DNA of 64,000 bases from Patescibacteria group bacterium (GTDB lineage: Bacteria; Patescibacteriota; Minisyncoccia; Phycocordibacterales; CAIZLB01), in the NCBI GenBank assembly GCA_040384865.1, contig JAZKIM010000004.1, forward strand, positions 75,974 through 139,973, read 5' to 3'. Of this stretch, positions 20,939 through 44,860 are shown in pieces. Positions within the stretch are counted from its first letter, which is position 1. Each line of letters starts with the position of its first letter. The notes below the pieces were generated by a model. It did not search any database, was not told where the DNA came from, and saw only the letters and a program-made list of their open reading frames with translations. A program made the position numbers and the translations under genes.

Positions 20939-21110
20939 TTTTAAGAAACAAATTTAGTTCGTTGTTGGATCCTTTATATCACGCAGGTGATCATCCCACG
21001 CAAGCACTTTCCAGAGTCTACTTTTTCGTAGACCGAATAGTCTTTAACATCCTTTCAAATACAATAGGGCAGTACAGAAAGAGTGTCGCTGAGAAACTAA
21101 AGCGGACTCC

Positions 21111-21788: not shown

Positions 21789-21848
21789 GTTGGATTTAGT
21801 ATAGCAGGAATATGATACAATTTTATTATTATAACTTTAACGAATATT

Positions 21849-24800: not shown

Positions 24801-25178
24801 AGTGATGAGTTTATTCTTCAACTTGCCCAAATAAGACAGATTAGAAAAAATGCTGAACCAGGAGCACCTGAAACCTCTATCGATTTAATAATTTCTGGAG
24901 GAACGGAATTCTGGCTGCATGGTAATAGAAGTAATGATCGAGCTAGTAACGGCACAAGTCACGGTTATTCTATGACTGTCGACATATCAAAACGAAACGG
25001 TTACGGGACATGGATCCTGAAGACTTTTAATCCTTTCCCTGGCTGTTCGAAATGGCTTGATCTCGGTAATAATCTCAGATTCCTAAATGAAGATTCTGTG
25101 CATTTTCATGTCGAAGGATATCCGGTAAAAGACACTTGTGGTTTTAACAGGGCAAACTTCGAATATTCAAACTATTAG
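21849..25178 (+). CDS. Giant secreted protein (1109 aa) with Fn3/Ig-like repeats and C-terminal LAS/M15-type zinc-peptidase-like motifs
   Basis: Signal peptide; repeated W/Y-containing beta-rich modules; last ~120 aa contain SHGYSMTVD (H-x6-D) and VHFHVE (H-x-H). Confidence 0.65.
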   Translation: MNILTSRFSSKRLITSGVLCALFVLLSLIPSLSRADIIKLSTPKFTSAENIYCGAVKLTWTKSLVGGIVVVPTRYSLYRLNPSTMNLDRIVSTTSTSYIDSTGPLGTYSYIIQSENIYGISLKSAPLVGNNNTNCTPKLTVTCSLSKVTTPNSTAKDYLWTASTTGGTSNRSFKWNDSSTNFSSSTGMSPYLYKRYSMPGLVFMQVTVTSGVQKVTASCLGTIAQAPLNGPAVVTRTATTTTCGSDISFSWAPVTKATGYSVYRSTGPASDMATWTKIATNIGQTQFTDPFSSVKASTTYFYRVTSLIGDIEPTGLSSNVIPFVSPYYQLKVKTDDACGTLPPGPVASTTLPAAPLTFTAKEGATCQDPAILKWSPVIGSKGYKVKAATSLVGPFIQIDSFATTSSSTTITYMDKTASPGSIIYKVSAYNDFGTSLETVSNIIIQPDCYDPDGKLDYHDPDADDTEVTPNYSLFTVKSFGSPEFAAEHGDDIYVIPQPTFLVYSINPSDPENWIRVQTCANFFCDTDSLYGGVVYFPKIAPGSSDLFDTIVMEVRTDQGVKKILGYVPKNIPDEEFIFPGGIRNVSLDLPLRYKTQIPSYYEQSLTMGVDDAYRFLRISGATLNGHLDIYAQAYHTFTTEELKSIPPNTPYPSKEIKTATVDFTDATSPNWWSGTTFSNYSSGTGYGESNGVRVTRYLCDGQSTLQNYFQLGFNWFGDTIDNGDDTISTGVQASTYGSNLNRGNCDQTKEYYNSNSSTGFYGSPGKTQFKNPIKFYTVEVVDYDGALIKSVDMWGESDPNTIGGNYRVSGAVTIRLSKFDSYDGMFNEEGLLSANPDYTESVDENRYPLLASLSLKEKIFARLDMLIRYNPLSASVTAAFSKVQQVFSGINKNNQTATVYRKLKKKSDSSRIARNGKGNTPKKASGTAPVKEIDLTKEYATRDRIAYWFAHAGQVGPAINRADAANLGVCTTNVSKNCTAVLGLSDEFILQLAQIRQIRKNAEPGAPETSIDLIISGGTEFWLHGNRSNDRASNGTSHGYSMTVDISKRNGYGTWILKTFNPFPGCSKWLDLGNNLRFLNEDSVHFHVEGYPVKDTCGFNRANFEYSNY

Positions 25179-25187
25179 TATAGAGAA

Positions 25188-25222
25188 ATCGCCTGTGTGC
25201 AGAGCACGCAGGCGATTGTTTC
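25188..25222. terminator. Bidirectional hairpin terminator
   Basis: ATCGCCTGTGTGC-agag-CACGCAGGCGAT (13-bp stem, 1 mismatch) then TGTTTCT. Confidence 0.55.
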
Positions 25223-25241
25223 TGGGGGCGGGGCGCCCCTG

Positions 25242-25466
25242 TTATTTGTCGGTCGGGTCACCACTGCCGTACTTCTCGCGAAACTCCTGGTAGCTGCTGC
25301 TACCGGTTTGTTCGACGAGTTGTTCGACAGAGCTGCCGAAGATGCAGGGCTGCGACTCTGGGATAGTCGCAGTGACTTTTTTGATGTGCGCGGGGCTTGA
25401 AGAACAGCCGGTCGCGCAGAAGAGGAACAAGCCTCCAAGGAGGAAGCGGGGAAGGGTCTTTTTCAT
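25242..25466 (-). CDS. Small putative lipoprotein (GC-rich)
   Basis: 74 aa; MKKTLPRFLLGGLFLFCATGC lipobox-like signal; local GC clearly above the contig average. Confidence 0.35.
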   Translation of the reverse strand: MKKTLPRFLLGGLFLFCATGCSSSPAHIKKVTATIPESQPCIFGSSVEQLVEQTGSSSYQEFREKYGSGDPTDK

Positions 25467-25577
25467 TCAGGCCATATTATATCACAACTGAGTATGTTTG
25501 TCTATAGGTCCATAAAAGCACGCTTTTAAGTCATTTTTCTAGCAAAGAGGGTGCTATAAGGGCATCGTAATGTTAGA

Positions 25578-26930
25578 ATGTGGAGCATCATGTCTACCTA
25601 TCATTTCTGGCACAATTGTGTTTCCTGCGGCAAAGATTTCTCTCCTGATAAGTTCCTCTACACTTGTCCTTCGTGTGGCGGCCTCCTGCTGGTTGCTCGA
25701 GATGAGCAATATATAAAAGATACCATCGGTACAGGAGAAAAAATCAGAAACTATTTTGACGACCTTCGTTTTGGAAAACGTCGGAAAGAATATCCGAATG
25801 ATTCAGGTGTATGGCTTTGGCGAGATTTCATTTTGCCTGGCTTCCCAGAATCAGCGATCATTTCTCTTAAGGAAGGTCAGACTGACCTCTTTGAAATCCC
25901 AGACTGGCTTAAAAAAGAAGTTGGACTCAAGAACCTTTTCATTAAACTCGAGGGCCAGGCACCATCAGAGAGTTTTAAGGATCGCGGCATGCCTGTTGCT
26001 GTCTCTGATGCTCTACGCCTCCAGCAAGAGTTTCCTGAACTCGGCATTACCGGTATATCGTGCGCCTCAACAGGCGACACTTCGGCCGCTGCTGCGATAT
26101 ATTCTGCATACCGACGAGACAAGCTCTCTTGTTTGGTGCTTCTTCCATTTGAAAAGATATCTGATCCTCAATTGTTTCAGGCGATGGCTCACGGGGCGGA
26201 TGTACGCGCGATCAAACACCCCAACGGTTTCGATGGTTGTATGAAATTGATTCAAGAATTTACCTTGCATCATCCTGAATTGGCTTTAGTGAATAGTAAG
26301 AATGACATGAGGGTTGTCGGGCAGGAAACGATCGGCCTTGAAATCATTCAGGATCTTTCCTGGAAAGCACCTGAGTGGATCGCCCTTCCGGTAGGAAATG
26401 GCGGAAACCTTACAGCACTTCTTAGTGGACTCCTTCGCGCAAAAGAATTTGGAATGATAGATAGTTTGCCAAAGATTATCGTTGGACAAACTACGGCAGC
26501 TGATACCTTGGTGCGATGGCAGGAGAGTGGCTATGAAAAATATGAGCCAGGGGAATATACAGATACGATTGCCAGTGCTATGAATATTAATAACCCGGTT
26601 AGTTTTCCTCGAATTCAAAAGTTGTATAAAAACTTTGACTTACATTTCTATCGCGTTTCAGAATCTGAGATTCAAAGGACATGGGCGCAGTTTACTCGAG
26701 CGGGGGCAAATATTTGTCCACAATCTGCCGTTGCTTTGAATGCTGTGCTTCAGGCGAAGGCGAAGGGACTTGTGAAAGAAACCGACACTGTTGTTTCGGT
26801 TTCCACTGCTTCATCAATCAAATTTGCGGAAACGGGAATTGTACATCATAAGACTGGAAAGAAAGAGGATTTCGCTAATCCATATGAAATCATAGATGGA
26901 ACAGTGGGGGCTTTGGAGAAGAGTTTGTAA
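25578..26930 (+). CDS. thrC: Threonine synthase
   Basis: N-terminal zinc ribbon CVSCGKD...CPSCGG, PLP-lysine motif SFKDRGM; 450 aa. Confidence 0.85.
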   Translation: MWSIMSTYHFWHNCVSCGKDFSPDKFLYTCPSCGGLLLVARDEQYIKDTIGTGEKIRNYFDDLRFGKRRKEYPNDSGVWLWRDFILPGFPESAIISLKEGQTDLFEIPDWLKKEVGLKNLFIKLEGQAPSESFKDRGMPVAVSDALRLQQEFPELGITGISCASTGDTSAAAAIYSAYRRDKLSCLVLLPFEKISDPQLFQAMAHGADVRAIKHPNGFDGCMKLIQEFTLHHPELALVNSKNDMRVVGQETIGLEIIQDLSWKAPEWIALPVGNGGNLTALLSGLLRAKEFGMIDSLPKIIVGQTTAADTLVRWQESGYEKYEPGEYTDTIASAMNINNPVSFPRIQKLYKNFDLHFYRVSESEIQRTWAQFTRAGANICPQSAVALNAVLQAKAKGLVKETDTVVSVSTASSIKFAETGIVHHKTGKKEDFANPYEIIDGTVGALEKSL

Positions 26931-26946
26931 GATACAAGAATGCAAA

Positions 26947-26977
26947 ACAAAAAACCGCCCATAGGGGCGGTTTTTTG
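26947..26977. terminator. Bidirectional rho-independent terminator
   Basis: AAAAAACCGCCC-atag-GGGCGGTTTTTT between convergent thrC and csp. Confidence 0.75.
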
Positions 26978-26985
26978 TTGGTAGG

Positions 26986-27183
26986 TTATGCTCGCTTGAC
27001 GTTCACGGCATTCTTTCCTTTGTCAGTTTCCTCTGTTTCAAAAGAAACAGCGTCGCCTTCGCGAAGTTCATCGAACTTAACATCTACGAGAGAGTTAGTG
27101 TGAAAGAAAATATCCTTTCCTCCATCTTCTGGAGCGATAAAACCAAAACCTTTTTCCATAATCTTCTTGATTACTCCTTTCAT
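26986..27183 (-). CDS. Cold-shock protein (CspA family)
   Basis: 65 aa; KGFGFI RNP1 and FFH RNP2-like motifs. Confidence 0.9.
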   Translation of the reverse strand: MKGVIKKIMEKGFGFIAPEDGGKDIFFHTNSLVDVKFDELREGDAVSFETEETDKGKNAVNVKRA

Positions 27184-27366
27184 GGGGTTAGTTTGTTAGT
27201 TAATAATATACAAATGTAATTTCTTCGAAACTCGACGTGTTCTAAATAGGCTCTTTGTTGCTGACAATGGTATCATGGCGAGGTTGGTTTGTCAAATCAA
27301 AAGAAAAACGCTCTCACCCAGTATTACTACTTTGGTGAGAGCGTTTGCATCGGCATGTTGCGGACG

Positions 27367-28203
27367 CTACTTTTTTGCCTCGTTGAGGCCGACGATGAAC
27401 TTGGTCATCTCCTCGAGTTGTTTGGAGGTTGTTCGACAACCGGCGAAGGCTTGGCTTTCTGGATTGCCAAATCCTTTGCCACCACCCCATCCGTCGAACT
27501 TTTCCTTCACAGCCTTGCAGATGTCGCCAGGCCCGAAGTAATTGAGTTCGTAGGGAACGTCGTCGTAGGCATCGCTTTCCAGGTACATGTCGAGTTCGCC
27601 TTCGTGGGCAAGCGTCAGACAACGCACCAGAAGGTTTTCTTTACCGTTCGGCCAGGTCTGAAAAAGACGATCGGTAACCGGTGAGCACTTGTTGCTGTAA
27701 CGCAGGTTGACGATGACGACACCACCGCGTTCCACGCGATTGGAGATGCTGTGTTCAGCTTCCTCCTCCATTTGATTCGTCACACCCTGCGCTTGGCGGT
27801 CGGCGAGACGGATTCCGTAAATTTCGTCGTCGGTTGCCCCCATTTCAAGCATTGCAGGAATGTAGCCAGAATCATTCGCGGCGACGAGTTCATCGTGCCG
27901 AAAAGGTTTCACTCCGATCCATTTTAGGACCTGCAGGATCGAGGCGGGTTCGCCAGAGCGATTGCCGTGGTGATTAATGTCGCCGACGGGTTCACAGAGC
28001 TGAGTGTCAAACTCGAGTTCGACGCAGACTGGCGTGATCCCTTGCTGCAATGCCTCGTCGATCTCAGAGGCATAATCCGAAGTCTTGGCGCCCCAGTCGA
28101 GGCCTTTGTCTGCGAAGGGAATGCTGTGTTCCTGCAGTCGCTGACGGATGGTCAGCATTTCGAGGTCATGGCCTCCCAAGAAGAACATGTATTTCATTTT
28201 CAA
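27367..28203 (-). CDS. Hypothetical protein, GC-rich (possibly a metal-dependent hydrolase; unassigned)
   Basis: 278 aa, longest ORF in a ~55% GC segment; N-terminal YMFFLGGHDLEM and later INHHGN motifs. Antisense ORFs at 27289-27684 and 27967-28350 are considered by-products of the high GC. Confidence 0.5.
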   Translation of the reverse strand: MKMKYMFFLGGHDLEMLTIRQRLQEHSIPFADKGLDWGAKTSDYASEIDEALQQGITPVCVELEFDTQLCEPVGDINHHGNRSGEPASILQVLKWIGVKPFRHDELVAANDSGYIPAMLEMGATDDEIYGIRLADRQAQGVTNQMEEEAEHSISNRVERGGVVIVNLRYSNKCSPVTDRLFQTWPNGKENLLVRCLTLAHEGELDMYLESDAYDDVPYELNYFGPGDICKAVKEKFDGWGGGKGFGNPESQAFAGCRTTSKQLEEMTKFIVGLNEAKK

Positions 28204-28368
28204 AGGTCCAGCTTAGAAGTACGAGTGATTGATAATATTCACTCATCCAGTTTGTGGTTTAGGATGCCTAAGGGCAGCTTCAGGGCTAGTTCGGGTCTTA
28301 CAGTACCACTTAATCCGTATTACGTCAAATACAAAAAAATGCGGAATTAACGTATACTAAAAACACTC

Positions 28369-29370
28369 ATGGATATTAAATTTAAGGGAAAAATTGAGAG
28401 TTTAATAGCGGAAATAAAGAGTAGATACGATTTACGTTTTATTGATATTGGTTTAGAAAAAGGTGCAAAGTTCTATATTTTTGGAGGAGTACTTCGAGAT
28501 ATGATTTTGGATAAACCATGGAAAGAGATTGACGTTCGAGTTTTTATAAACGAACCATATCCAAAGAGAGATGATGTGATGGAACAGATATTAAGCGAGG
28601 CAGGTATTAATATTTCTTCAAAAATCCCTTTTGGTGAATCATTTACTGTATATAGATTTGTTCCACCTAATAGTAAGTCTAAGGTAGATATTGATCTTAG
28701 TGTTATAAGTAAAGACTTTTCTGTCGGCCCTGATTTTACGATTAATGGATTATATTTGGATTTTGTAACTCATGAATTAATTGATCCACATAATGCTATT
28801 CAAGCTATAGAAGAAAAAGTTATCAAGACGGCGCTGGAGCCAATACAACAATTTAAGAATGAACCCTGGATGATATTCAGAGCTGTTAAAGCGGCGTGTC
28901 AATTTGATTTTAATATAGAGCAAAAAACATTGCAGGGGATGAAAGTCAATGCATCACTTGCAGAAGGAATGATGCAATCAATCGTTGATAAGAGTATGGG
29001 AGGAATGACAGAATGGCTCCTTGGAAACATGCTTCGAGGTCTTAAATATAACGCAAAGAAATTTGTTGATATTTGGAATGAGACCGGGATTACCCTTATT
29101 TTTGTAAAGTTTATTGCGAAGAATTATGGGAGTACCTCGAATGACATTAAAATTACGAATCCTTTTGTGTTGGGGAGACATGACGGTTTTGAAGATAACT
29201 TAAATATATTTTTCAGTGAGGTATCAGTTGCTGTAGATAAAGAAAATCCTGAAAAAGTATTCCGCAAGATATTAGATTTGTTCGAAATAGATAAGCCGAA
29301 ACAGTTTGAGGATTTTATAATCGATCCTTCGAAGCTGAGGTTTATTAAAAATATAGATATTTTGGTTTGA
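28369..29370 (+). CDS. Pol-beta superfamily nucleotidyltransferase with PolyA_pol/CCA-type head domain
   Basis: IFGGVLRDMILDKPWKEIDVRVF = GG-x-[VL]RD ... [DE]h[DE] motif of class II CCA-adding/poly(A) polymerase heads; 333 aa, AT-rich. Confidence 0.55.
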   Translation: MDIKFKGKIESLIAEIKSRYDLRFIDIGLEKGAKFYIFGGVLRDMILDKPWKEIDVRVFINEPYPKRDDVMEQILSEAGINISSKIPFGESFTVYRFVPPNSKSKVDIDLSVISKDFSVGPDFTINGLYLDFVTHELIDPHNAIQAIEEKVIKTALEPIQQFKNEPWMIFRAVKAACQFDFNIEQKTLQGMKVNASLAEGMMQSIVDKSMGGMTEWLLGNMLRGLKYNAKKFVDIWNETGITLIFVKFIAKNYGSTSNDIKITNPFVLGRHDGFEDNLNIFFSEVSVAVDKENPEKVFRKILDLFEIDKPKQFEDFIIDPSKLRFIKNIDILV

Positions 29371-29441
29371 TATACTTTCCATATGAAAAGCCCACCAGTT
29401 TGAGGTCCTTGTGGGAGCTTTCACTTGTGAGGCGTAAACCG

Positions 29442-29987
29442 TTAAACTTTGAGTGCGGCCTGATCGAGTAGATTGATGAGCGCACTTCTCGCAAAGCCCC
29501 ATGTAGAGGCTAGTTCGTCGAAGTGGTACACGATTCTGTTTCCACGAGGATCAAAGTGTCCATCGGGGCAGCTTCGCAGGTCATCCATTGATTGCTCTGC
29601 GCGGAGTCCAAAGTAATCCCAACCTTTGAATGTTTGCAGCAGGGCAACCTTGAATTTACCGCTCAACATCTTGTACATGAGACAGACTGCTTGATAATTT
29701 TTTGCTCGTGGAGAGGGGCAGTCCGTTGTGATATCGAACGCAGCGACGGGAGTGAGATTGACCCACGCCTCATCGTCAAAGAGTTCAATGCGTGCCAATT
29801 TACCGACTCTAATCTTTCTCATTTGGAATAAATTGTTGTGCTGGATTTCCAGCGGGGTTTGTGTGCTTTGTTTGGCGGTATGATACCGAAAAAGGCTCTG
29901 TTTGACAACTCTTAAAAGTCCTTGTACTTTAAGGTCAGATTTCCGAATCGATAATTCAAAACCAAACCTCAACCGGAACCTTACCAA
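29442..29987 (-). CDS. Hypothetical protein (GC-rich, uncertain ORF; TTG start as drawn)
   Basis: 181 aa ORF in the GC-rich block, diverging from the radical-SAM gene; no motif recognised. Confidence 0.3.
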   Translation of the reverse strand: MVRFRLRFGFELSIRKSDLKVQGLLRVVKQSLFRYHTAKQSTQTPLEIQHNNLFQMRKIRVGKLARIELFDDEAWVNLTPVAAFDITTDCPSPRAKNYQAVCLMYKMLSGKFKVALLQTFKGWDYFGLRAEQSMDDLRSCPDGHFDPRGNRIVYHFDELASTWGFARSALINLLDQAALKV

Positions 29988-31831
29988 TGAAATATTCCCT
30001 CATCGCGCCACTTATGGTGGCGCTCCTCATTAAGCTGGAAGTCTTGGAAACACTTCCTGACTTTTCGTCCTGGTCTGACCCGACAAAGGTCCGCTGGAGC
30101 GAAGAACAGAACACCTACCTCGACCATTCTTTGGAAGGGGAACACTGGGCGCTTTGCGCAATCTTGTCCAGCGGCAAGCGGATGTCGGAACCGACAAAGG
30201 TTCCGATGAAAAAGTCACTTGCACTGACAATCCGCACCGACCTCTTTTATCGCAAGACCACTTATATTGCGGTAACCATGCTCGGTATGGTGCGTTCGAT
30301 CGAACGCAAACAGTCGCGGCGACTCGTACTCGTGAATGTTGAGCAGATGCTTAACGAACAGGCCGGTGATCTACAGCAATATCGCGTATGGCCACACCTC
30401 GGCCTCATCTTCGTCGGCACAGTTGCCGACGAAGAAGGGTACGAAGTCGTCATCTGGGACGAATACGCTAAAGGCAATGTGCCTTTGGAAAAACTCGTTC
30501 AGGAAGGCGACATCGTCGGCCTCAGTCTCGTTGTCACCGGAATGGATCGCGGTATGATGCTCGCACGCCGGGCCAAAGAACTTGGCGCAGCCTGTGTCAT
30601 CGCCGGGAATGACTCGGCGATCTTCCGTGCTAACCAGGTGATGGCTCAAAATGATCGACCGATCGACGCGGTCTTCACGACAAACAGTCTGACCGCGGTC
30701 AGGCAGTTTCTGCGAGAAATTGGCAGAACGCCGATCGAAGAGCTCGACATCCCAGGTGTTCAGATGACAGCGCGTGGCGAAGTGCGTTCAAACGAACGTG
30801 ATCAACTGCTCATCGAACAAGAAGCTCGAAAGAGCAGCGAGTTCAATAGTGACGACGTGTTCGTTGTGCCGAAGTTGGAGCTCTACCCGCACTGGGAAGA
30901 GCTATGGACTAACTACCGCGCGACCTTCGGTCACAAGCACTCGAACCCGAAGACGGTGAAGAATGCAATTTCTCTCTTTGCCCAAGGGTGTACTCGCACC
31001 CGCGGTAGTGATGTGTGTCTTTACTGCACCATCGCCGGCGTCGCAGATTTGCGTACGCCGTCGGAAGAAATTGTTCGACGCACCATTGAAGCGTACGATA
31101 AGTTCGGTATCGACATGCTCTACAACGCGACAGATAGCGTTTATGAAATGGCGAAAGTCGTGAGTCAGCTCCAGAGGCTCGGTGCTTCGTGGAAGTCGAT
31201 GACGATCTACGGCCGAGCACAAGGTATCGCTCGTGCCCCACACCTCATTGAAGAATGGCAAAAAGTTGCGACGGAGCGACTACTCGTTAACGTCGGAATG
31301 GATTCCGGCAGTGACGAGATTCTTCATAAGGGGATCGTTAAATCTTCGACTGATGTGCTGGGCAGCCGTCTTGCTGAAAACCGAAACGCGGTGAAGTACA
31401 TTCGACAGTCTGGTGCGCATCTGCACTACTCACTCATCTTCGGTTCACCTGGAGAGACACTCGAAACGTGCGAAAGTAGCATCGAGTTTCTCGAATGGAC
31501 GATCGAGGTTCTTGGTAGTCAGCTCGACATCTGCGAGACCGACGTCTTCTGGCTGAACTTCGGTTCGCCGGCAAGCCGGATATTCCGTGAGTATGCGTTC
31601 GCCGTGTACCTTGCGAGTCTCGCGGGGAAGACAATCGAGCGCGATGAGTGGCAGCGGGATTTTGCGCAGTATGCTAACGAACTTGTTGTGCCACAGTCAG
31701 TGGAGGAGTCGTGGTATCGCCACTTCACCAACATCGAGTACGAGACGGCGCAGTTGTTCAATCAGCGTGCGGCCGAGATCATGTCGCGACACACGGGGAG
31801 TATTAGGGGGCGAGCCTTTAGGCCTGCCTAA
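29987..31831 (+). CDS. Cobalamin-binding-domain radical-SAM-like enzyme (class B rSAM-like, non-canonical Cys spacing)
   Basis: 614 aa. The N-terminal half resembles a B12-binding Rossmann domain (GLIFVGTVADEEGYEVVIWDE ... VGLSLVVTG ... CVIAGNDSAI). The central AQGCTRTRGSDVCLYCT motif gives C-x8-C-x2-C spacing, followed by a NVGMDSGSDEIL (GxESGS-like) motif. Confidence 0.5.
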   Translation: MKYSLIAPLMVALLIKLEVLETLPDFSSWSDPTKVRWSEEQNTYLDHSLEGEHWALCAILSSGKRMSEPTKVPMKKSLALTIRTDLFYRKTTYIAVTMLGMVRSIERKQSRRLVLVNVEQMLNEQAGDLQQYRVWPHLGLIFVGTVADEEGYEVVIWDEYAKGNVPLEKLVQEGDIVGLSLVVTGMDRGMMLARRAKELGAACVIAGNDSAIFRANQVMAQNDRPIDAVFTTNSLTAVRQFLREIGRTPIEELDIPGVQMTARGEVRSNERDQLLIEQEARKSSEFNSDDVFVVPKLELYPHWEELWTNYRATFGHKHSNPKTVKNAISLFAQGCTRTRGSDVCLYCTIAGVADLRTPSEEIVRRTIEAYDKFGIDMLYNATDSVYEMAKVVSQLQRLGASWKSMTIYGRAQGIARAPHLIEEWQKVATERLLVNVGMDSGSDEILHKGIVKSSTDVLGSRLAENRNAVKYIRQSGAHLHYSLIFGSPGETLETCESSIEFLEWTIEVLGSQLDICETDVFWLNFGSPASRIFREYAFAVYLASLAGKTIERDEWQRDFAQYANELVVPQSVEESWYRHFTNIEYETAQLFNQRAAEIMSRHTGSIRGRAFRPA

Positions 31832-31925
31832 GAGGACAAGCTCCTTAGAAAACAGCGGGGCCTTCAACGAAAGTTGGAGGTCCTGTTTTTATATAAAAAC
31901 GCAGCCACCCCTTTCAGGATGGCCG

Positions 31926-32780
31926 CTATGTTTTTTGCCCCTCAGACTTCACAACCCAACGGCTGAGGTAGCCGGTCGCAATGAGTGCGACTATGACCCC
32001 ACCCCACTGAAGTGGTGATAGTTTCTCACCGAGCAGTATTCCCGCGACGATGATCACCGCAAGGGTTTCACCTTGAGCAAGGACGCTTGCCACTTCGACG
32101 GGCAAATTGTCGAAGGCGACGAGATTTGCCAGCCAGTAGAGGAAACCACCGACGAAGGCAAAGGCGATGATCGCCAACCGCAGTTCAGCGTTTTCGTTGA
32201 CTGCCGACCAGGAAGCGTCGAGACTTCCGATGACTCCGATTGTGCCAATGCCGACTGATCCCCAAAAGCATCGATGCATCGAGGATGACTTTGCCCGTAC
32301 GATCAGCTCGTACAGGATACCGTTCGTGGCGGTAGCGAGGAGACTCCAGAGCAATCCGGTCATATTGAAGTTTCCGTTCCAGCGGGCGGCGATGATACCG
32401 CTCAGCATAAGACAGAAACAAATGATCGGCGCAGTGGAAACCTTTTTGCCAAAGATCCAGGCAATGAAGAAGTTCACTGCCGGAGTCGTTGCGATGATGA
32501 TAATCGTTGGTCCCGCGCCCCACTCGCGAATGCCTTTGAATAGGCCGAGTGATGCGAAGGGGACGCAGAGCGCGATCAAGTACGTGTACTTGTCGGTGGT
32601 TGCGACCCGTCCGCGCAGGAGTAGGAACGCGAGAATGGCGGTGAGCCAGCCGCGCATTGCGAGCAACTGTTCGGGTGTTTGTGACTTCAGTACATTGACG
32701 AAAGGAAGGGCAAGCCCCGCTGTTAGCCAAATACCGATGACTCCGAGGAGCCCGAGAGAGACATGGTGTTTGGGGCGCAC
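31926..32780 (-). CDS. EamA/DMT-superfamily transporter
   Basis: 284 aa with ~10 TM helices in two repeated halves; GC-rich. Confidence 0.65.
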   Translation of the reverse strand: MRPKHHVSLGLLGVIGIWLTAGLALPFVNVLKSQTPEQLLAMRGWLTAILAFLLLRGRVATTDKYTYLIALCVPFASLGLFKGIREWGAGPTIIIIATTPAVNFFIAWIFGKKVSTAPIICFCLMLSGIIAARWNGNFNMTGLLWSLLATATNGILYELIVRAKSSSMHRCFWGSVGIGTIGVIGSLDASWSAVNENAELRLAIIAFAFVGGFLYWLANLVAFDNLPVEVASVLAQGETLAVIIVAGILLGEKLSPLQWGGVIVALIATGYLSRWVVKSEGQKT

Positions 32781-32965
32781 GAGAGCACCTCCTTTCTTGT
32801 TAAAATTGTTTTGAGCAAGGTTACGCGAATGCGTGCCTGGGGCTATAGTGCAATAAAATTAAGATTTTGTACAGATGCAAAATATGGAGGTTATTAGACC
32901 AGGTTAGAGCCTCTTTTGATAAGGATTGATTTAATTATATAAATAGTTGATGATATAAAATACTT

Positions 32966-33826
32966 ATGACAAGTCACGAATCTATAAATCGTTTTGATGT
33001 GGGTGATAACGGAGAGATAAGAGAAAGACTCTCTATAATTCAAGAGTCAGTGAGAGAAATTCAAGAAACTTATCCAGAGGTTGTCGGTTTCCTCATGTTT
33101 GGTTCAATGGTAAAAGGTTATGCAACTGAAGAAAGTGATATCGATGGAAGAATCATAATTGATGTAGAGCAGATTCATGATAAAAATTCTAATACAGTGA
33201 CTGTTATAGGGTGGAGGTCATTAAAAAATGATGCCGGTGCCTTATCAGTAAAAGAAAGAGGATTGAGCCCTTCTAGTATTCACGCCCGCTTTGAAGACGC
33301 CACAAAGAAAAGATATGAAGATTTGATAAAAGATAAATTTAAGTTGGGTATATCAAAATTAAGTGATGAACAGGTTAGACACATAGAAGCTTTACCTATA
33401 TCTTTCGAAGCTCTCGATAAAATATTAAAGATTTGGAGAGATAATGTTGCGGAGTTCAAGGCGATAGAGGATGCGGATAAAAAGATCAGGAAAAAGCATA
33501 AAAAAGAAGAACTGTCTGATGAGGATATGGCTTTTTTGATGCGAGAGAAGAGTTTTAAACTTCCAGAAAAAAACATACAGGCTTCAGAATATCTTTCGCA
33601 ACTATTCTTTTTAAGTGTCGGTTCGAGTAATATTCGTCCTTACCGTGCCTATATTATTAAGAAGCTTTTTTCTTACGGAGAAATTGGGAAAGAAATGTGG
33701 ACACATATTATTAGCTATACAGAAATTATGGAAAGAAGGCTGGTGGATGAAGAGAAAAAAGAAGGTGAGGCTCTCAGCGTAAAATATCCCAGAACACTGG
33801 AAGATGCGAAGTATATTTATGGTTAA
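32966..33826 (+). CDS. Pol-beta superfamily nucleotidyltransferase (minimal NTase / CD-NTase-like fold)
   Basis: FGSMVKGYATEESDIDGRI = G[GS]-x10-DxD nucleotidyltransferase signature; 286 aa; AT-rich; immediately upstream of the 1219-aa ORF on the same strand. Confidence 0.55.
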   Translation: MTSHESINRFDVGDNGEIRERLSIIQESVREIQETYPEVVGFLMFGSMVKGYATEESDIDGRIIIDVEQIHDKNSNTVTVIGWRSLKNDAGALSVKERGLSPSSIHARFEDATKKRYEDLIKDKFKLGISKLSDEQVRHIEALPISFEALDKILKIWRDNVAEFKAIEDADKKIRKKHKKEELSDEDMAFLMREKSFKLPEKNIQASEYLSQLFFLSVGSSNIRPYRAYIIKKLFSYGEIGKEMWTHIISYTEIMERRLVDEEKKEGEALSVKYPRTLEDAKYIYG

Positions 33827-34038
33827 TTTTGGACAGGGTGGAAAATTTATCAAACCGATTAATAGAGATATGGGAGTTTATTTAAAGGTGAAATAATACT
33901 TTGGAAGCATCGTCAGTGTCGTAAATGAAAAACCTGTTATATGGATACCTTTAGCGAAAAAGAAGGTATTAAAGGAGGAAAATGGGTGGTAGAGAGGTTA
34001 AAATAACCCTAACTAGTCGGTTTAGAAGTTGAAAGATA

Positions 34039-37000
34039 ATGCGGTATCATATAACCTATAATATGCCTGAAAGAGTTAAATTGCATAAAGAGAATGTTGA
34101 ACCTGTCGAAGGTCAGCCTATCGGAAAAAATGAGGATGTTATTGTCGATTCTGTAGAAGTAGAATCCTTACGTGAAGCGAAAGTGTTGAAGGAAAAAATT
34201 CACAAGCTCCATATTGAGGCAGAGATGATCAAATTAAATATTGCGAACCTAACTTCTGGATACGAAGGTAAGGGTGATTCAGAAGGAGGAAATGATCAAG
34301 ATCCTGAGATGCCCCAGCAAAAGGCCGAGGATCTTTTGAAAAAGGTAGATGGGCTTTTTGATACAAAAGGTAAAAAGCCAAATACTGATTTAAGTCCAGA
34401 GGATTTTATAAAACAAGCCACAAGTATTCTTCCGCAGTTGGATGTAGCGTATAGCTACTATCTGTTTAAAAAAGAACAACTAGACAAAAGAGAGCAGGTT
34501 TTAGTTTTAGAAATAAAAGAAGCCGAGAAACATATTGTAAATAGAGCCTCGTTTAAAGATAAGGCATTAAACTTTCTTTCTGATAAAAAAGCTAAAAATA
34601 AGTTGGATCAGCTAAGAAAAGAAAAAAATGACGTTGGTCTTGATAGTTTTCATACTTATAACCACAGGAACGCTGTGTATGCAAAAAGAAGATCTTTGAT
34701 AGAGAATACAAGTGAGGTTCTTTCAGGGCAAGTTGCAACGAGCATTCAAAAATTAGCTGTGGAGTATTTTGATTTATTTAATTCCTCTCCAGAAATAACA
34801 GCATTGCAAAAGACAGCAATAATTGAATATGTGCGTTCACAGCTTCAGGAGGATGATCCACACGATGTAATGGATGAAGTTACCAATTCCGCTTCTGATT
34901 TGATTGAAAGCAGGAGATCTTCAAGAGAGGACTTTGTATCTCATAAATTATATAAGACAGGTGATAGAAAAGATTTATCTGGCCCTTTATACTACGCCCT
35001 CATGCGCATTGAAAGCTCTGGCGCTGATAAGTATGTTATTCAAAGGATCGTTGGATTTGATTTTGGAAAAAAAGTTGAGGAAATTTGTGAACCATTAAGA
35101 TGGGCTCGCGTAAGTTCTAGAGAAATAATTAATCAGTGTCGTGATATAAAGCAACTGGATCAAAAAGTAAGGGATTTCCTTTTTTCAATTAGTGGTGATT
35201 TATCCCATCACGATATCCTTAGAATATGGGAGACTGCGAGAGACAATAAAGCTTTTCAAGTAGCTTTTGGCAAAAGTATTCAGGAAATTAATACCGTAAC
35301 TCAAACCTGCCAAATAAATGACAAATTTTCACCTGATCACTTACCAAGAGATCTTTATCATAAATTAGTTTTAAACCTCCCACTCCATCAGTTTAATGCA
35401 GAGCTTGTTAAGGCCGTAAATGAAGGAAGGGTTACTGCAGAGGCTGTAATGAATATGCCAGATGAAATCCCTGATCTTTTGGATAACAGCGAAGGGCTAC
35501 TTGCACAAATGATGAAAGCTCCAGAGATTTTTCTTGCTTCTAAAGAAGCAGCATCATATTCAAGAGATCTGAAATCAAAATATGGAAAAAATACAGGAGC
35601 ATTAAGGGTCGCCATGTCATATCTTAAACCAAACAATACGCTGGAATCTAAAGATGCAATCTTGAAGCTGCCCAAAAAGTATCCTGGACTCATAAACACT
35701 GAAGAGAAAGAAAGTTCGAAGCTTTTGAGTCTTGTTTTTGAAAACCATGAAATATTCTTCCCACCAAGTGAACCCATCGCCCTTGCTAATAGAATAGGAG
35801 GGACGTATGGGATACAGGCGGAGAGAATTCTTAATGGATACATTGAGTGTGCTAAAGCCGGGGTTGTTTCAGGAGAACAAACAGCTATTGTTATAGAATT
35901 TTTAGAAAACTTCAGAGTAATTTCTCCGGCGATATTGAAAGGTTACATTGAAGCTAAAAAGCTTAATCAAGAAGAACTGTATATTGCGGAACTTAAGTCC
36001 GCTGCTGAAAAAATGGTTAGCTCTGAAATAATTTCTGAAGAACAAAGATCCAAAGAATACTACGATGATTTAATTAAGCACGTATATCCTAAAAACTCTG
36101 CAAACTTTGGTGGTTATGAGCAATCCAAGCTTTGTTCTGATAGATCAGCGGATTTAGAAAAATACAAAGTAAAAAAAAGATATGAAATAGACCTTTTTGC
36201 TTCGGGGCGAATCGATATGAAAGAGGGTGAAACTTTAAATGAAGAAAAAGTTGGAAAGGTTAAGAACGACATCCTTGCGATCCAAAGAATTTTTGAATCG
36301 GTTGAATATGACCCTGCGAAAATGATTGAACTAGTTGAGGCGAGAATAAATGAATTGTACGTCGGAGAAAATGCTGAGCTAGGAAGAGAAGAAAAACTCT
36401 TCATAATATTGGCAGAAACACTTTATGGGAATTCATCTTTAGATAGAGATATGGTAAAGCAACTGGTTGTAACTTATGAATTTGCTTTAAATGAGGACGT
36501 AAGAGATTACATAAAGGGAACTAGTGATCGAGTTGCTTCAGCATCAAATAAGGATTATGCCCTGTTGTGTGAATTAAATGAATTTTATAACGACCGAATT
36601 AAGGAGGTTTACAGAAGAATCACGGAAAAAGCGTATGTTTCAGAGCATATACAGCAGGCAATGCCTCGATACTTTGAAATGTTGGTGCAACAAAAAGAGC
36701 AGGGTAGAAGTAAGGAATCTATCGATAAACTTCAGCTTGATAAGCTCGGTATGTCTCCGGGATTTATATCACAAATAAAAAAGGCTTTAAAAAAGAGAAA
36801 TGGAAAGGAATATACAGATGAACAAGTAAAGAAAATTATATCCGCATATGAAAGAGTAGCGGGTGGTTTAACAGGAAAGAAATCGGAGTCCAGGAAATCG
36901 GGAACACAAGCGATTTACGGACAGTTAAAATCTCAAAGGGATAAAACTCGCAACGCTGTTAAAGAATTGACAGGCGAAGAGATTAATCCCGAGGAGCTTT

Positions 37001-37698
37001 TCTTGTCTAACGTTAACTTCGAACAATTACTTCAAAGCGAGAGATCTATATCTAGTGGCGTATATAACCAAGATCAATTTGCAGCGTATACAGTAGAGAA
37101 TTTAATAGGACTTTTTGATGATGAGCAAACTATAATTTCTGGAGAATTGGATAAATTCCAATCTGAGTCTGGAAATTCACGGAAGGTTCTCAATGCTTTT
37201 ATAACTAAGAATAAAGAAAGTGCCAACGCTCGAATGACAGGAGGTGTGTGTGTTGCAGCAGATAATCCTAGCAAGGATAGGAAGGTGGATAATATCTGGG
37301 ATATGGAAAACTATTTCCAAATGGTTTTTCAAGATCCAGAAAGCTTAATGTGTACAGGTCTCGTACTTTTGCATGCCGAAGAGCATAATGGTGAAAATAT
37401 ATTGTGTGCGTCACTCAATCCCTCAAGTACATATCTATACACCGTGGATGAAAGAGCCCTGTTTGAAGGAATTATGAAGTCACTTGAAACATTTGCCAAT
37501 GAAAATAACTTCTCAAAGATTGCTGTTGCGCACAATAAGGCAATTCGAACAAATAGAACGGGAGGGGAATTTGAAAAAGCTTTGGATGCACGAATAGCTG
37601 CGCAGAATGTATCAATCAACTTTGATCCACCAAAAACCTTTTCTTTCAATCCTGCGTATGTAATGACAGGGGTAAATGTTGTTTGGCAGAATAATTAG
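34039..37698 (+). CDS. Very large hypothetical protein (1219 aa), helical, K/E-rich, no recognisable catalytic motif
   Basis: Single uninterrupted ORF with native-like AT-rich composition; a strong terminator follows. Confidence 0.6.
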   Translation: MRYHITYNMPERVKLHKENVEPVEGQPIGKNEDVIVDSVEVESLREAKVLKEKIHKLHIEAEMIKLNIANLTSGYEGKGDSEGGNDQDPEMPQQKAEDLLKKVDGLFDTKGKKPNTDLSPEDFIKQATSILPQLDVAYSYYLFKKEQLDKREQVLVLEIKEAEKHIVNRASFKDKALNFLSDKKAKNKLDQLRKEKNDVGLDSFHTYNHRNAVYAKRRSLIENTSEVLSGQVATSIQKLAVEYFDLFNSSPEITALQKTAIIEYVRSQLQEDDPHDVMDEVTNSASDLIESRRSSREDFVSHKLYKTGDRKDLSGPLYYALMRIESSGADKYVIQRIVGFDFGKKVEEICEPLRWARVSSREIINQCRDIKQLDQKVRDFLFSISGDLSHHDILRIWETARDNKAFQVAFGKSIQEINTVTQTCQINDKFSPDHLPRDLYHKLVLNLPLHQFNAELVKAVNEGRVTAEAVMNMPDEIPDLLDNSEGLLAQMMKAPEIFLASKEAASYSRDLKSKYGKNTGALRVAMSYLKPNNTLESKDAILKLPKKYPGLINTEEKESSKLLSLVFENHEIFFPPSEPIALANRIGGTYGIQAERILNGYIECAKAGVVSGEQTAIVIEFLENFRVISPAILKGYIEAKKLNQEELYIAELKSAAEKMVSSEIISEEQRSKEYYDDLIKHVYPKNSANFGGYEQSKLCSDRSADLEKYKVKKRYEIDLFASGRIDMKEGETLNEEKVGKVKNDILAIQRIFESVEYDPAKMIELVEARINELYVGENAELGREEKLFIILAETLYGNSSLDRDMVKQLVVTYEFALNEDVRDYIKGTSDRVASASNKDYALLCELNEFYNDRIKEVYRRITEKAYVSEHIQQAMPRYFEMLVQQKEQGRSKESIDKLQLDKLGMSPGFISQIKKALKKRNGKEYTDEQVKKIISAYERVAGGLTGKKSESRKSGTQAIYGQLKSQRDKTRNAVKELTGEEINPEELFLSNVNFEQLLQSERSISSGVYNQDQFAAYTVENLIGLFDDEQTIISGELDKFQSESGNSRKVLNAFITKNKESANARMTGGVCVAADNPSKDRKVDNIWDMENYFQMVFQDPESLMCTGLVLLHAEEHNGENILCASLNPSSTYLYTVDERALFEGIMKSLETFANENNFSKIAVAHNKAIRTNRTGGEFEKALDARIAAQNVSINFDPPKTFSFNPAYVMTGVNVVWQNN

Positions 37699-37872
37699 AA
37701 CGTAGCTTCACTGGGAGCTTCCTTAAAGAGAAGTAGGTTGGCCTAATTAGTTTAGTCGTGCAGTGAAATACAGTAGACCGGCCACGAATTGGAACTACAC
37801 TCGATAGCTACCTGCAAAGGAGTCCCGTCGAGAGATTATCGGTTGCTTAAGCGGCAACCCATCAGAAATCGA

Positions 37873-37912
37873 GCCTCGGCGACCATGTGTCGTCGGGGCT
37901 CTTTCTTATATT
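37873..37912 (+). terminator. Rho-independent terminator after the 1219-aa ORF
   Basis: GCCTCGGCGAC-catgt-GTCGTCGGGGC (11-bp stem with 2 G-U pairs) followed by TCTTTCTTATATT. Confidence 0.7.
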
Positions 37913-38166
37913 AGTATTTTGAAATAACAACTTTCCATTCTTTTTGTAGGGGTTTGTATTTTTCTTTGTTGTTTTTTGGTTTTGGAATAACCCCATCTGA
38001 GTTTAAGAATACGTTTTTGTGGACATAGTGAGCGAAACTTGGAACCAACTACACCCTTGGATATTTGAAGCGTCTGAGGCGATTGTAGGGAATGGCAGGT
38101 AAAAGAAAAGCCCCACCGTTGAAGGTCTCGATGGAGAGCTCTTCAGGGTGAGGGTTGTTGTGGTAA

Positions 38167-38664
38167 TTACGGCTCGTAGGTTTCGGAGGCGAGCATGATG
38201 AAGTGCTCATCCGTCGCCGATGATGAGGGTACCTCGGTGAGAGTATACTTCGCCATCGAATCCCAGCCTGTCCTTTCGAGGACGAGCATCGTCGCGCTAT
38301 TGGTAGGGTCAATTCCGCAAATCAGACGGGCAGGAAAGTCGTTCGGAAACGCCCGCGCATTGAATGCGATGAACGAAGCGACTTCGCAAGCGTCTGGCAG
38401 GAACCAGTCAGGGTTGCAGATGCTGCTATCAAGTTCGACCTTCAAATTTGGGAAGCTGGGCTTTCCATACAACTCAACAAAAATGGCATGGATGATGCCG
38501 GAGGTTCTGTCGCTGACGGGATACTTGCCGATGACCTCGGTGTTTCCACTGATGCCACCCTGGATTCTTTGAATGACCCCAGCTGGCGATACACCGCGAT
38601 GCGGGTTGCAACCAAAGACGGTGTAGTCTTCGGGACGGAAATCGACAATTTTCATAGTGTTCAA
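38167..38664 (-). CDS. Hypothetical protein, possibly GNAT-type N-acetyltransferase (GC-rich)
   Basis: 165 aa; C-terminal GIDPTNSATMLVLERTGW resembles the RimL/RimJ-type GNAT motif (…N.aS..vLEK.GF). Confidence 0.35.
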   Translation of the reverse strand: MNTMKIVDFRPEDYTVFGCNPHRGVSPAGVIQRIQGGISGNTEVIGKYPVSDRTSGIIHAIFVELYGKPSFPNLKVELDSSICNPDWFLPDACEVASFIAFNARAFPNDFPARLICGIDPTNSATMLVLERTGWDSMAKYTLTEVPSSSATDEHFIMLASETYEP

Positions 38665-38792
38665 GGTGCATATTCCTTAAGCGAGGAATGGTTTGTGTTT
38701 TTTGGTTTTGGTGAGTGCCTTGCTAAAGGGCTACATAACTGGATTTGCTAATAACCCTACAGGTATGAAAATGGTTGTCAATTTTTTTAATT

Positions 38793-39209
38793 GTGGAGAT
38801 GCCGGGAATCGAACCCGGGTGCAAGTGAGTCTCTTAGATGAATCTACGCGGCGTAGAGGGTCTTTAGACCTGCCCGGAGGCAAGGTCATTTAAAGTTCGT
38901 TACTTTAAGACAATCAAAACATAACGAACCCGAGCTACTATGGTTTCGGTAGACGACCGTAGCAGATCGTTAACCTATTTTGGATATATACCACCGGCGC
39001 ACGTTCTCCAAAAATAAACGTGCGTGATGTCGCTAGGCAGGGAGCTTACGCTCGGGCTGTCGCGAAGGCAAAATCGTTCACCGCAAAATACGGTGAAGCG
39101 ACTTTAGCTTGTCGTGCGTTAGCACTTAAGGGTTCCGGCAGATTTACGAGTTACCGGAGCTCGGTCGCGCACATAAAAGAAATTTCACATGTCGAAGCCA
39201 ATCATCCCC
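38793..39209 (-). ncRNA. ssrA: tmRNA (SsrA), ~417 nt
   Basis: Minus-strand 5' end GGGGAUGAUUGGCUUCGACAUG matches the tmRNA 5' consensus (GGGG.UGA...UUCGAC). The 3' end has a T-arm CCGGG-UUCGAUU-CCCGG and an acceptor 3' strand CAUCUCC that pairs with the 5' GGGGAUG, including a G3·U70 wobble and an A73 discriminator (Ala identity). smpB lies immediately upstream. A candidate tag ORF reads ...GCG GUG AAC GAU UUU GCC UUC GCG ACA GCC CGA GCG UAA (AVNDFAFATARA*). Confidence 0.75.
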
Positions 39210-39217: not shown

Positions 39218-39664
39218 TTATTGATTTTTCAAAGTCCTCCTGATCTCGCGGTCAGAATCTCGCTTCTTGATCGTCTGACGCTTGTCGAAACGTTTCTTTC
39301 CGCGGGCAATACCTATTTCTATTTTAACCTTGCCCTTATTGTTGTACATGGAAATTGGCACTACTGTCAACCCCTTACCGGTTTCAATGTCTGCCAATTC
39401 CTTAATTTCTGATTTTTTGAGAAGTAATCGTCGGTTTCGTCCAGGTTCATAGCCCTTTGGTGTGTTATTCATCTGGAACGGAGGGATGGTGGCACCGGTG
39501 AGATATGCCTCGCCACCGCGGATTAATACATATGCACCTTCAAGTGAACCTTGGTGTGCTTTGACTGATTTGACCTCAAAACCAAAAAGCTCGATTCCAG
39601 CCTCATAGGCTTTTTTGATATCGTAGTTGAAGTGAGCTTTTTTGTTTTGTACGAATGTTGTCAT
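39218..39664 (-). CDS. smpB: SsrA-binding protein SmpB
   Basis: MTTFVQNKKAHFNYDIKKAYEAGIELFGFEVKS...GKGLTVVPISMYNNKGKVKIEIGIARGKKRFDKRQ, canonical SmpB; start set at the internal Met (ORF-track start 39748 is an upstream extension). Confidence 0.9.
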   Translation of the reverse strand: MTTFVQNKKAHFNYDIKKAYEAGIELFGFEVKSVKAHQGSLEGAYVLIRGGEAYLTGATIPPFQMNNTPKGYEPGRNRRLLLKKSEIKELADIETGKGLTVVPISMYNNKGKVKIEIGIARGKKRFDKRQTIKKRDSDREIRRTLKNQ

Positions 39665-42295: not shown

Positions 42296-42303
42296 ATTAC
42301 TAA

Positions 42304-42331
42304 AATACCGCCTCTTGTGGCGGTATTTTAG
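42304..42331 (+). terminator. Rho-independent terminator after ftsH
   Basis: ACCGCC-tcttgt-GGCGGT followed by ATTTTA. Confidence 0.65.
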
Positions 42332-42479
42332 TCTGTGTTTTCTTGATCAAGATTCCATCATTAAGAACTCAACCCTAGTAGGTTTGACTTACAAAAATGG
42401 TTTTGGACATGGGATATGTCGGAAAGGAGTAAGAAGACAAGATCTTTTAGATTATGCACTACAAAGCCTCACCTTCTTG

Positions 42480-42600
42480 AGAAATGATTTATAGTGCCCT
42501 TGCGCGGTCTCGGAAAATGCAAGGTGAAACCCTAAAAGGATATTTAGAGGAAAATTTCTAAACTACTCTGACCCCTCTCGGCCTGACTTTATTTCAAAGT
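42480..42600. repeat. Repeated element, copy A (composite of modules seen in B and C)
   Basis: gtgcccttgcgcggtctcggaaaatgcaaggtgaaacc is ~80% identical to the B module; it also carries the 'ggatatttagaggaaaatttc' and 'cccctctcggcctgac' modules. Confidence 0.6.
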
Positions 42601-43590: not shown

Positions 43591-43599
43591 AGGGACTTG

Positions 43600-43750
43600 G
43601 GTAGCAACTTACCAGCTTTAATCCACCTCGGTCTATCTCACTAAAGGGTGCCCTTGCTCGGTCTCGGATTATGTAAAGTGAGACCACACAAGGGTTGTTT
43701 GGAAGATCTTAGGATGTCGAATTGAGGCACCTCAGTCGGGATCAAATTTA
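43600..43750. repeat. Repeated upstream element, copy B (modules ctcggtctatctcactaaagggtgccc + ttgctcggtctcggattatgtaaagtgagacc)
   Basis: The 27-nt module at 43637-43663 recurs at 44741-44767 with 1 mismatch; the second module resembles 42494-42532. Further related copies lie at 42480-42600 and 45880-45915. Confidence 0.7.
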
Positions 43751-44695: not shown

Positions 44696-44699
44696 GTCA

Positions 44700-44860
44700 G
44701 TATCTTAACTTAAAACCAACATTTTGTGTAATCTAAGCCTCTCGGTCTGTCTCACTAAAGGGTGCCCCCGCTAGGAATCGAACTTTTTATAATGAAGCGT
44801 TGTAAGGGTTATTTAGAGAATTTCAGTTTGGTAAATCTAGCCCGCTCGGTCTAATCAATT
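44700..44860. repeat. Repeated upstream element, copy C
   Basis: Contains ctcggtctgtctcactaaagggtgccc (44741-44767), a 'gggttatttagagaatttc' module also present at 42537-42557, and 'cccgctcggtctaatc' resembling 42572-42587. Confidence 0.7.

Follow-up and report, generated by a model that had tools for sequence, protein, structure and literature searches.

A gene-by-gene GC mosaic between ssrA and infC in a Patescibacteria genome: a probable gene-gain hotspot containing a conserved NrN-nucleotidyltransferase pair

Genomic islands that target ssrA, the gene for transfer-messenger RNA (tmRNA), encode a site-specific integrase, and a directly repeated copy of the ssrA 3′ end marks their limits. 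Streamlined free-living bacteria such as Prochlorococcus and SAR11 have flexible genomic islands, or hypervariable regions. The tmRNA genes are well-known integration sites of islands (PMC11915505, PMC3146451), and both genomic islands and frequent transfer from one member of the Patescibacteria to another have been reported (PMC12455944). Here we analyzed a 64-kb stretch of the 148-kb contig JAZKIM010000004.1 (hereafter the window; GC 0.423), which comes from a metagenome-assembled genome of a Paceibacteria-type member of the Patescibacteria (locus tags V4664_023xx) and in which strongly GC-rich and AT-rich genes alternate beside the tmRNA gene. The results suggest that this block is probably a gene-gain hotspot, i.e., a flexible genomic island between ssrA and infC, which grew by small, integrase-independent gains. 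Within it lies a conserved pair of genes, one of which resembles NrN, an enzyme that degrades the S-adenosylmethionine (SAM)-AMP signal of CorA-type type III CRISPR systems (PMC10600005).

The window was compared with 80 loci from species-representative related genomes, fetched with smpB as the anchor and taken without composition bias; open reading frames (ORFs) in all comparisons are mechanical calls. In blastn, similarity to the closest relative, L009 (SmpB 82% identical, IF3 99%), stops at 38784 and similarity to a second relative, L010, at 38792, which is 1-9 bp past the tmRNA 3′ end. Similarity to L009 restarts at 21809, and the variable block is therefore 21810-38783, in place of which L009 has 3,423 unrelated bp. 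Because ssrA is on the minus strand, the tmRNA 3′ end (38791-38793) faces lower coordinates, i.e., the block. The original prediction, made from the sequence of the window, had the block run from 27.2 to 38.8 kb; it does abut the tmRNA 3′ end, but relative to L009 its left edge lies at 21.8 kb, and the part left of 27.2 kb consists of genes for a 1109-aa surface protein and a lipoprotein and a thrC-like gene. The block and its surroundings are as follows.

15961-21788, minus strand: left backbone (Pfam), collinear with L009, where the homologues are 76-99% identical
15961-16305, minus strand: rplT, left backbone
16611-17123, minus strand: infC, left backbone
17178-18287, minus strand: PLD-like gene, left backbone
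19.0-21.1 kb: smaller variable patch within the left backbone
21111-21788, minus strand: histidine phosphatase gene, left backbone
21810-38783: variable block, 16,974 bp
38791 (or 38793)-39209, minus strand: ssrA, the tmRNA gene (ARAGORN; Rfam RF00023, 109.9 bits)
39218-39664, minus strand: smpB, backbone, directly upstream of ssrA and followed further out by ftsH and then recG

The order ftsH-smpB-ssrA...infC-rpmI-rplT is widespread in the clade, as judged from the 80 loci. Searches by tblastn, at the ssrA locus to which the original prediction had pointed for comparison, found none of the block genes in any of these loci. In the 29 relatives with both ssrA and infC located, which keep the order ftsH-smpB-ssrA-infC-rplT, 0.6-9.4 kb separate the tmRNA 3′ end from infC; the window has 21.7 kb, the largest value. 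The inserts between the two genes differ in content among six relatives examined in detail. Given that the interval varies in both content and length, multiple gene gains at a hotspot are favored.

The sliding GC profile and the per-gene values show that GC-rich and AT-rich genes alternate in the block, and codon-usage z-scores agree, in line with what had been read from the sequence. Relative to a backbone reference of 46 genes (GC 0.428±0.028; GC at third codon positions, GC3, 0.380±0.049), five genes stand out as strongly GC-rich (GC3 0.62-0.69, z +5 to +6), including the small lipoprotein gene whose GC-richness at 25.2 kb had been noted originally, and three are mildly AT-rich (GC 0.33-0.37).

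25242-25466, minus strand: 74-aa lipoprotein gene, GC.556, GC3.693
27367-28203, minus strand: 278-aa NrN-like gene, GC.538, GC3.634
28369-29370, plus strand: 333-aa PolyA_pol-like nucleotidyltransferase gene, AT-rich, GC.331
29987-31831, plus strand: 614-aa B12/radical-SAM-like gene, GC.539, GC3.624
31926-32780, minus strand: EamA transporter gene, GC.556, GC3.653
32966-33826, plus strand: 286-aa Pol-beta-type nucleotidyltransferase gene, AT-rich, GC.357
34039-37698, plus strand: 1219-aa gene, AT-rich, GC.367
38167-38664, minus strand: 165-aa ORF, GC.530, GC3.645

The four larger GC-rich genes have GC3 z-scores of +5.0 to +5.5 and codon-fit z-scores of -2.2 to -3.3. The three AT-rich genes had been taken for host-like, at 35-38% GC; this holds for their codons (codon-fit z ~0) but not for their GC, which falls below the backbone (z -2.1 to -3.4), the host itself being at ~42-43%. 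Relative synonymous codon usage (RSCU) sorts the genes into three classes, GC-rich, AT-rich accessory and backbone: usage is similar among the GC-rich genes (r.41-.66), which are anticorrelated with the AT-rich set, while the AT-rich genes and the 1109-aa ORF reach r.59-.78. GC at fourfold-degenerate sites falls from.61 in the GC-rich set through.34 in the backbone to.26 in translation genes, so that the GC-rich bias is not a high-expression signature, ruling out translational selection as the source of the GC3 excess. In the 80 related loci, comparable GC-spike ORFs number 18 of 897 (2%), and at least four among nine genes are therefore improbable (P = 1.9e-5). Overall, the GC of the block is indistinguishable from that of the genome (.433 vs.423), such that the mosaic is visible only by gene-level analysis.

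The GC-spike genes of the relatives are varied accessory genes. Those located at L086 5720-7864, L060 13113-14141, L015 12905-13618 and L055 1792-2415 encode a dihydroorotate dehydrogenase, a dihydroorotase-like amidohydrolase, a SAICAR synthase and secreted proteins with PEP-CTERM-like tails, and they look like transferred metabolic and surface genes.

The block shares with the ssrA-targeting islands of Dehalococcoides (PMC3146451) and of the tmRNA-database catalogue (PMC11915505) that lineage-specific DNA begins at the 3′ end of a single-copy tmRNA gene, and that composition and codon use depart from the backbone. Unlike these islands, it has no integrase match and no repeat of the ssrA 3′ end, and its content resembles a series of units of one or two genes more than a single element. 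Among the ORFs at 21.8-38.8 kb, to which this search was confined, none matched an integrase, recombinase, transposase or phage protein in Pfam, NCBIfam, PADLOC or PHROGs, the sole exception in the phage library being a weak Ig-like PHROG match in the 1109-aa protein. In a search for a second copy of the tmRNA 3′ end, a 23-mer and a 15-mer with mismatches matched the tmRNA alone, its last 30 and 60 nt gave only chance matches of at most 10 nt in blastn-short, and no repeats bounding the region were found. The two absences first described from the sequence, of an integrase and of a repeated tmRNA 3′ end, thus hold in these searches. A permissive Rfam search of 17-39.3 kb returned only the tmRNA and sub-threshold noise, without tRNA fragments, and a viral collection scanned for the families of the 1219-aa and NrN-like (278-aa) proteins held no relatives. 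As found in a terminator scan, strong hairpin terminators of their own follow the radical-SAM, EamA and 1219-aa genes, which fits independent small units. The likeness is closer in kind to flexible islands (Prochlorococcus, SAR11; Patescibacteria, PMC12455944), with which the block shares a fixed site between conserved genes, an adjoining tRNA-like gene and a content that varies between relatives, lacks mobility genes and is enriched in surface, transport and unknown functions. It differs from them by the fine alternation of strongly GC-rich and AT-rich single genes, which is unusual, given the 2% of comparable ORFs in related loci.

We thus propose that the hotspot would have grown in several steps that needed no integrase, each adding a cassette of one or two genes with its own promoter or terminator; the likely route is that DNA was taken up from other Patescibacteria and then recombined. 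The GC-rich gains (lipoprotein, NrN-like, B12/radical-SAM, EamA and 165-aa genes) would keep the codon signature of a background of ~55-60% GC, and the AT-rich accessory gains (two nucleotidyltransferases and the 1219-aa protein) would use host-like codons, the NrN-like and PolyA_pol-like genes being one conserved divergent module whose internal GC contrast travels along with it.

The radical-SAM gene bears on the GC-rich part of this proposal. Its 614-aa product has weak Pfam matches below the cut-offs (Radical_SAM 19.8 vs 29.5, B12-binding 19.3 vs 32.1), and its Cys cluster as read is C-x8-C-x2-C, not the canonical CxxxCxxC; many of its homologues have precomputed PF04055 or PF02310 assignments. 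The family is large and well conserved, with identities of 47-71% among the listed matches, and all its taxon-named full-length members are Patescibacteria. The gene is solitary, with different neighbors in each of four other genomes. Its GC3 z-score is +5.0 in the window and +0.2 to +1.7 against the flanks in other genomes; as the window gene is an outlier while its relatives lie near their hosts, this fits acquisition from a GC-richer Patescibacteria lineage. We had considered that the radical-SAM family is intrinsically GC-rich (gene.51 vs flanks.42-.48), and rejected this on the same z-scores. A 276-aa gene and an EamA gene near the radical-SAM gene of L001 are not homologues of the 278-aa and EamA genes of the window. 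When the radical-SAM and SmpB ORFs were looked up as exact proteins, no record matched, probably owing to differing start codons.

Several points weigh against the hotspot reading. The taxonomic origin of the GC-rich ORFs, which the original prediction had raised, is answered in part: homologues of the NrN-like and radical-SAM proteins, where named, belong to Patescibacteria (many metagenomic contigs carry no taxon, and our taxonomic statements rest on named homologues), but no donor was identified, the best homologues being 70% identical for the radical-SAM protein and at most 55% for NrN, and no gain is demonstrably recent. The acquisition mechanism is deduced solely from the missing integrase and attachment sites, and the host composition of other loci was taken from at most 20 kb of flanking sequence. 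Finally, acquisition followed by amelioration fails for the NrN-nucleotidyltransferase pair, in which NrN stays GC3-high over ~50% protein divergence. We therefore turn to this pair, which also underlies the strongest alternative.

Sequence and structural model place the 278-aa protein in the NrN family of DHH phosphodiesterases. It matches PADLOC DHH_CorA (2.5e-49), and its profile matches the NrN entry 9lq9 of the Protein Data Bank with an E value of 6e-59. The AlphaFold model (predicted local confidence, pLDDT, 93.5) has as its best Foldseek matches NrN crystal structures, including the SAM-AMP complex (TM.78/.88, 31% identity). E15 and D111 of the window protein are kept, aligned with E21 and D119 of crystallized NrN. 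In the DHH motif, H78 and H79 are invariant, while residue 77 is Asn (NHH) in the window protein and its closest homologue (L090), at a position occupied by Asp in no fewer than 90% of 39 NrN homologues; activity or metal binding may thus be altered. In contrast to NrN of CRISPR loci, no cas10, CorA or CRISPR array was seen among the annotated genes of the 64-kb window, and the neighbor is the PolyA_pol-like nucleotidyltransferase. A separate clade of NrN homologues, of CRISPR type, adjoins very large upstream genes.

The neighboring 333-aa protein matches Pfam PF01743 (4e-08; 34 bits vs a cut-off of 23) over 31 residues only, the NCBIfam CCA/PcnB models at ~1e-14 and the PHROG tRNA nucleotidyltransferase at 4e-17. 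Like the class II nucleotidyltransferases (CCA-adding enzymes, PcnB), it has the head-domain motifs GGxLRD (GGVLRD) and DFTING. Unlike them, it scores 53 bits against family cut-offs of 290-305, is shorter and lacks an HD domain. The second Asp of the DxD motif is replaced by Arg (DxR; WKDxDxRV) in nine of nine aligned PolyA_pol-like nucleotidyltransferases (the window, L090, L091, L093, L096, L097, L100, L124 and L125), so that this family may be catalytically non-canonical or no polymerase. The tmRNA gene ends in ...GGCATCTCCACAA (38791-38800) and its terminal CCA is not encoded, such that a CCA-adding activity is required; the sole PolyA_pol-type gene in the window is this atypical 333-aa nucleotidyltransferase gene.

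The NrN-like gene is divergent from the nucleotidyltransferase gene, with a spacer of 165 bp, and the same divergent pair is found in six other contig types (L090, L091, L093, L096, L097 and L100). Three of these, reached via NrN homologues, are independent Patescibacteria contexts in which all other neighbors differ, and three come from a metagenome scan. The two members diverge in parallel (identities of 43-58% in the nucleotidyltransferase, 48-55% in NrN), and NrN is again clearly GC-richer than its partner in four or five of the six, which are the mid-GC hosts (L090, L093, L096 and L100; less so L097). Because the pair is conserved elsewhere, the compositional switch of 28.2-28.4 kb cannot be put down to an assembly join or an acquisition seam. 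The multiple acquisitions suggested originally thus agree with the lineage-specific, variable ssrA-infC content, but not at this switch. In two of the contig types, a GC-rich ORF stands just past the nucleotidyltransferase gene (L090 7791-8672, 293 aa, GC.536, no Pfam match; L100 4175-4393, 72 aa, GC.539), and these ORFs may add a third, variable part to the module.

We infer that the nucleotidyltransferase would make or modify a nucleotide-containing product which the NrN-like enzyme would hydrolyze. A more specific version is that the pair is a CRISPR-independent module that both makes and destroys a SAM-AMP-like conjugate, for signaling or as an anti-defense "sponge" against CorA-type immunity, with the persistent GC-richness of NrN in AT-rich Patescibacteria selected, for instance to decouple its expression from that of its partner; we consider this distinctly unlikely. 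The EamA transporter family includes SAM carriers, and if the pair were such a module, the radical-SAM enzyme and the EamA transporter might share a SAM-centered function.

Across the seven divergent pairs, NrN has GC3.59-.74 while host GC3 ranges over.36-.64. In a regression on these seven pairs, NrN GC3 follows host GC3 with a slope of.36 and a mean excess of +.205, and GC3 of the partner nucleotidyltransferase follows the host with a slope of 1.39 (r.91). On a quick neighbor-joining tree, the NrN clades behave as follows.

Two non-CRISPR NrN clades: NrN has the highest GC3 of the locus in 13/15, z +1.1 to +8.5
CRISPR-type NrN clade: NrN has the highest GC3 of the locus in 2/8
Co-oriented pair clade, 3 contigs: NrN highest in 0/3, both genes AT-rich in GC-rich hosts

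The last clade (L116, L124 and L125) has NrN followed by a co-oriented nucleotidyltransferase gene, both AT-rich (GC3.29-.50) between flanks of GC3.58-.75, a pattern that would fit transfer of the pair out of an AT-rich donor to GC-rich recipients. Elsewhere, stand-alone NrN homologues are extreme single-gene GC spikes between host-like flanks (L104 7607-8557/L105, L108 7986-9044 and L118 7989-8783), with GC.64-.67 and GC3 up to.86 in a.43 contig, or GC.58 in a.34 contig.

Such a pattern could also arise if gene-specific forces keep some genes, above all the NrN-like one, GC-rich in any host, the mosaic being partly an equilibrium property; possible forces are selection at synonymous sites (mRNA stability, or throttled translation of a dosage-sensitive enzyme) and GC-biased gene conversion at loci that recombine often. 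The top rank of NrN in 13 of 15 non-CRISPR loci, as opposed to 2 of 8 in the CRISPR-type clade, and its high GC3 in all seven pairs beside a nucleotidyltransferase that follows the host, argue for this view. On the other hand, NrN GC3 varies (.49-.86), the co-oriented pairs are AT-rich in GC-rich hosts, as expected for a mobile gene lagging its host, the radical-SAM family has no such trait, and the folding z-score of the NrN mRNA is merely -2.35 on only 20 shuffles. A highly mobile NrN family whose composition lags its hosts explains much of the pattern, though not the contrast inside a co-inherited pair. Overall, gene-specific forces seem a somewhat unlikely explanation of the mosaic.

A classical tmRNA-targeting integrative island, or several perhaps in tandem, whose integrase and attachment repeats were lost by decay, would account for a boundary within 1-9 bp of the tmRNA 3′ end, at a known type of integration site (PMC11915505, PMC3146451), and for a block that is the largest among the relatives examined. 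However, the libraries searched yielded no mobility or phage gene, the last 15-60 nt of the tmRNA match nothing beyond chance and no repeats bound the region; even weak RNA or tRNA fragments and viral relatives are missing from the Rfam and viral searches, and the relatives examined in detail carry small, different inserts at the same site, rendering this scenario quite improbable.

That the contig is a chimeric assembly, interleaving host sequence with stretches from a GC-richer organism, is very improbable: the composition switches are indeed abrupt and at gene boundaries, and the sole independent assembly (Logan contig L089, run SRR26324625; 100% identical to window 27294-28254) covers essentially the GC-rich NrN segment and ends in AT-rich spacers, but this contig enters both flanking spacers (73 and 51 bp) at full identity, all switches lie in intergenic spacers with plausible promoters or terminators, the named NrN-like and radical-SAM homologues are Patescibacteria, as is the backbone, both flanks are collinear with L009, five separate GC-rich pieces would have to be inserted in order, and at the sharpest junction, 28.2-28.4 kb, one of those that the original prediction had listed for a check on chimerism, the six other contig types with the same pair exclude a mis-join, chimerism elsewhere being unlikely. 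We thus retain a hotspot of small gene gains between ssrA and infC as the best explanation.

The remaining features of the block and of its right-hand surroundings are listed below.

21849-25178, plus strand: 1109-aa secreted or surface protein gene, the leftmost block gene, with an N-terminal signal-like sequence
25578-26930, plus strand: threonine-synthase-like gene for a pyridoxal phosphate enzyme (NCBIfam thrC 1.8e-58), host-like in composition, GC.448, codon-fit z 0.0
29371-29986: spacer of 616 bp, GC ~.48, holding a doubtful 181-aa antisense ORF (29442-29987)
37871-37901, plus strand: terminator-like hairpin after the 1219-aa gene, with a 13-bp stem including 9 GC pairs, then a T run
42300-47100: second variable patch around tRNA-Ile(UAU) (45915-45991), with four AT-rich genes, GC.355-.375

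The 1109-aa gene has a host-like composition (GC.421), and its RSCU is nearest that of the AT-rich accessory genes (r.62-.78). The 74-aa lipoprotein has a signal peptide ending in a lipobox-like ...FCATG/C (cleavage before C), and its gene is preceded by a promoter-like site at 25504-25476 with 11 of 12 positions matched. The 436-bp spacer between the thrC-like and NrN-like genes holds sub-threshold Rfam matches at 26944-27235 (a cspA thermoregulator at 28 bits and a Leu leader), which are probably due to chance. The 181-aa ORF had been counted among the GC-rich genes, but has no support as a gene: its TTG start overlaps the radical-SAM start codon, its GC is.463 and it has no family match.

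The gene for the EamA/DMT-family transporter (Pfam EamA 1.9e-13) is convergent to the radical-SAM gene and ends in a terminator of its own at 31926-31901. The 286-aa protein is a minimal nucleotidyltransferase (Pfam Polbeta 4.3e-07, NTP_transf_2 1e-04) with weak PADLOC PDC-S09 matches, and its likeness to MntA spans 25 residues only. The 1219-aa protein belongs to an uncharacterized family of large proteins (241 cluster representatives at E<=1e-3) that share the C-terminal ~750 aa; no Pfam domain was found in it or in five relatives. The small GC peak at 37.7-37.9 kb is explained by the hairpin at 37871-37901. The 165-aa ORF, originally described as GNAT-like, has no Pfam, NCBIfam, PADLOC or PHROG match, and its AlphaFold model is unusable (pLDDT 41); among 5.8 billion proteins it has one homologue, 54% identical, on a 1.3-kb contig without a tmRNA gene.

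In the second variable patch, three of the AT-rich genes lie between ftsH and tRNA-Ile(UAU), and the fourth, a 3-dehydroquinate-synthase-like gene, lies between tRNA-Ile(UAU) and recG. L009 and L010 lack all four, and their ftsH, tRNA and recG genes stand close together; in L010, tRNA-Ile(UAU) is inverted.

Little is understood of how Patescibacteria, with their tiny genomes, acquire genes. The locus described here is probably a tmRNA-adjacent hotspot that collects small cassettes without recognizable integration machinery, and whole-island GC scans would miss such regions because their GC-rich and AT-rich genes cancel. A compositional switch alone proves neither separate origin nor mis-assembly, since one such switch runs through a conserved two-gene module. 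The occurrence of an NrN-type enzyme, hitherto the SAM-AMP "off switch" of type III CRISPR, outside CRISPR and beside a nucleotidyltransferase provides a lead on nucleotide-conjugate chemistry, and the fact that NrN is repeatedly the GC-richest gene in its neighborhood offers a test case for the roles of selection, biased conversion and transfer in bacterial GC content.

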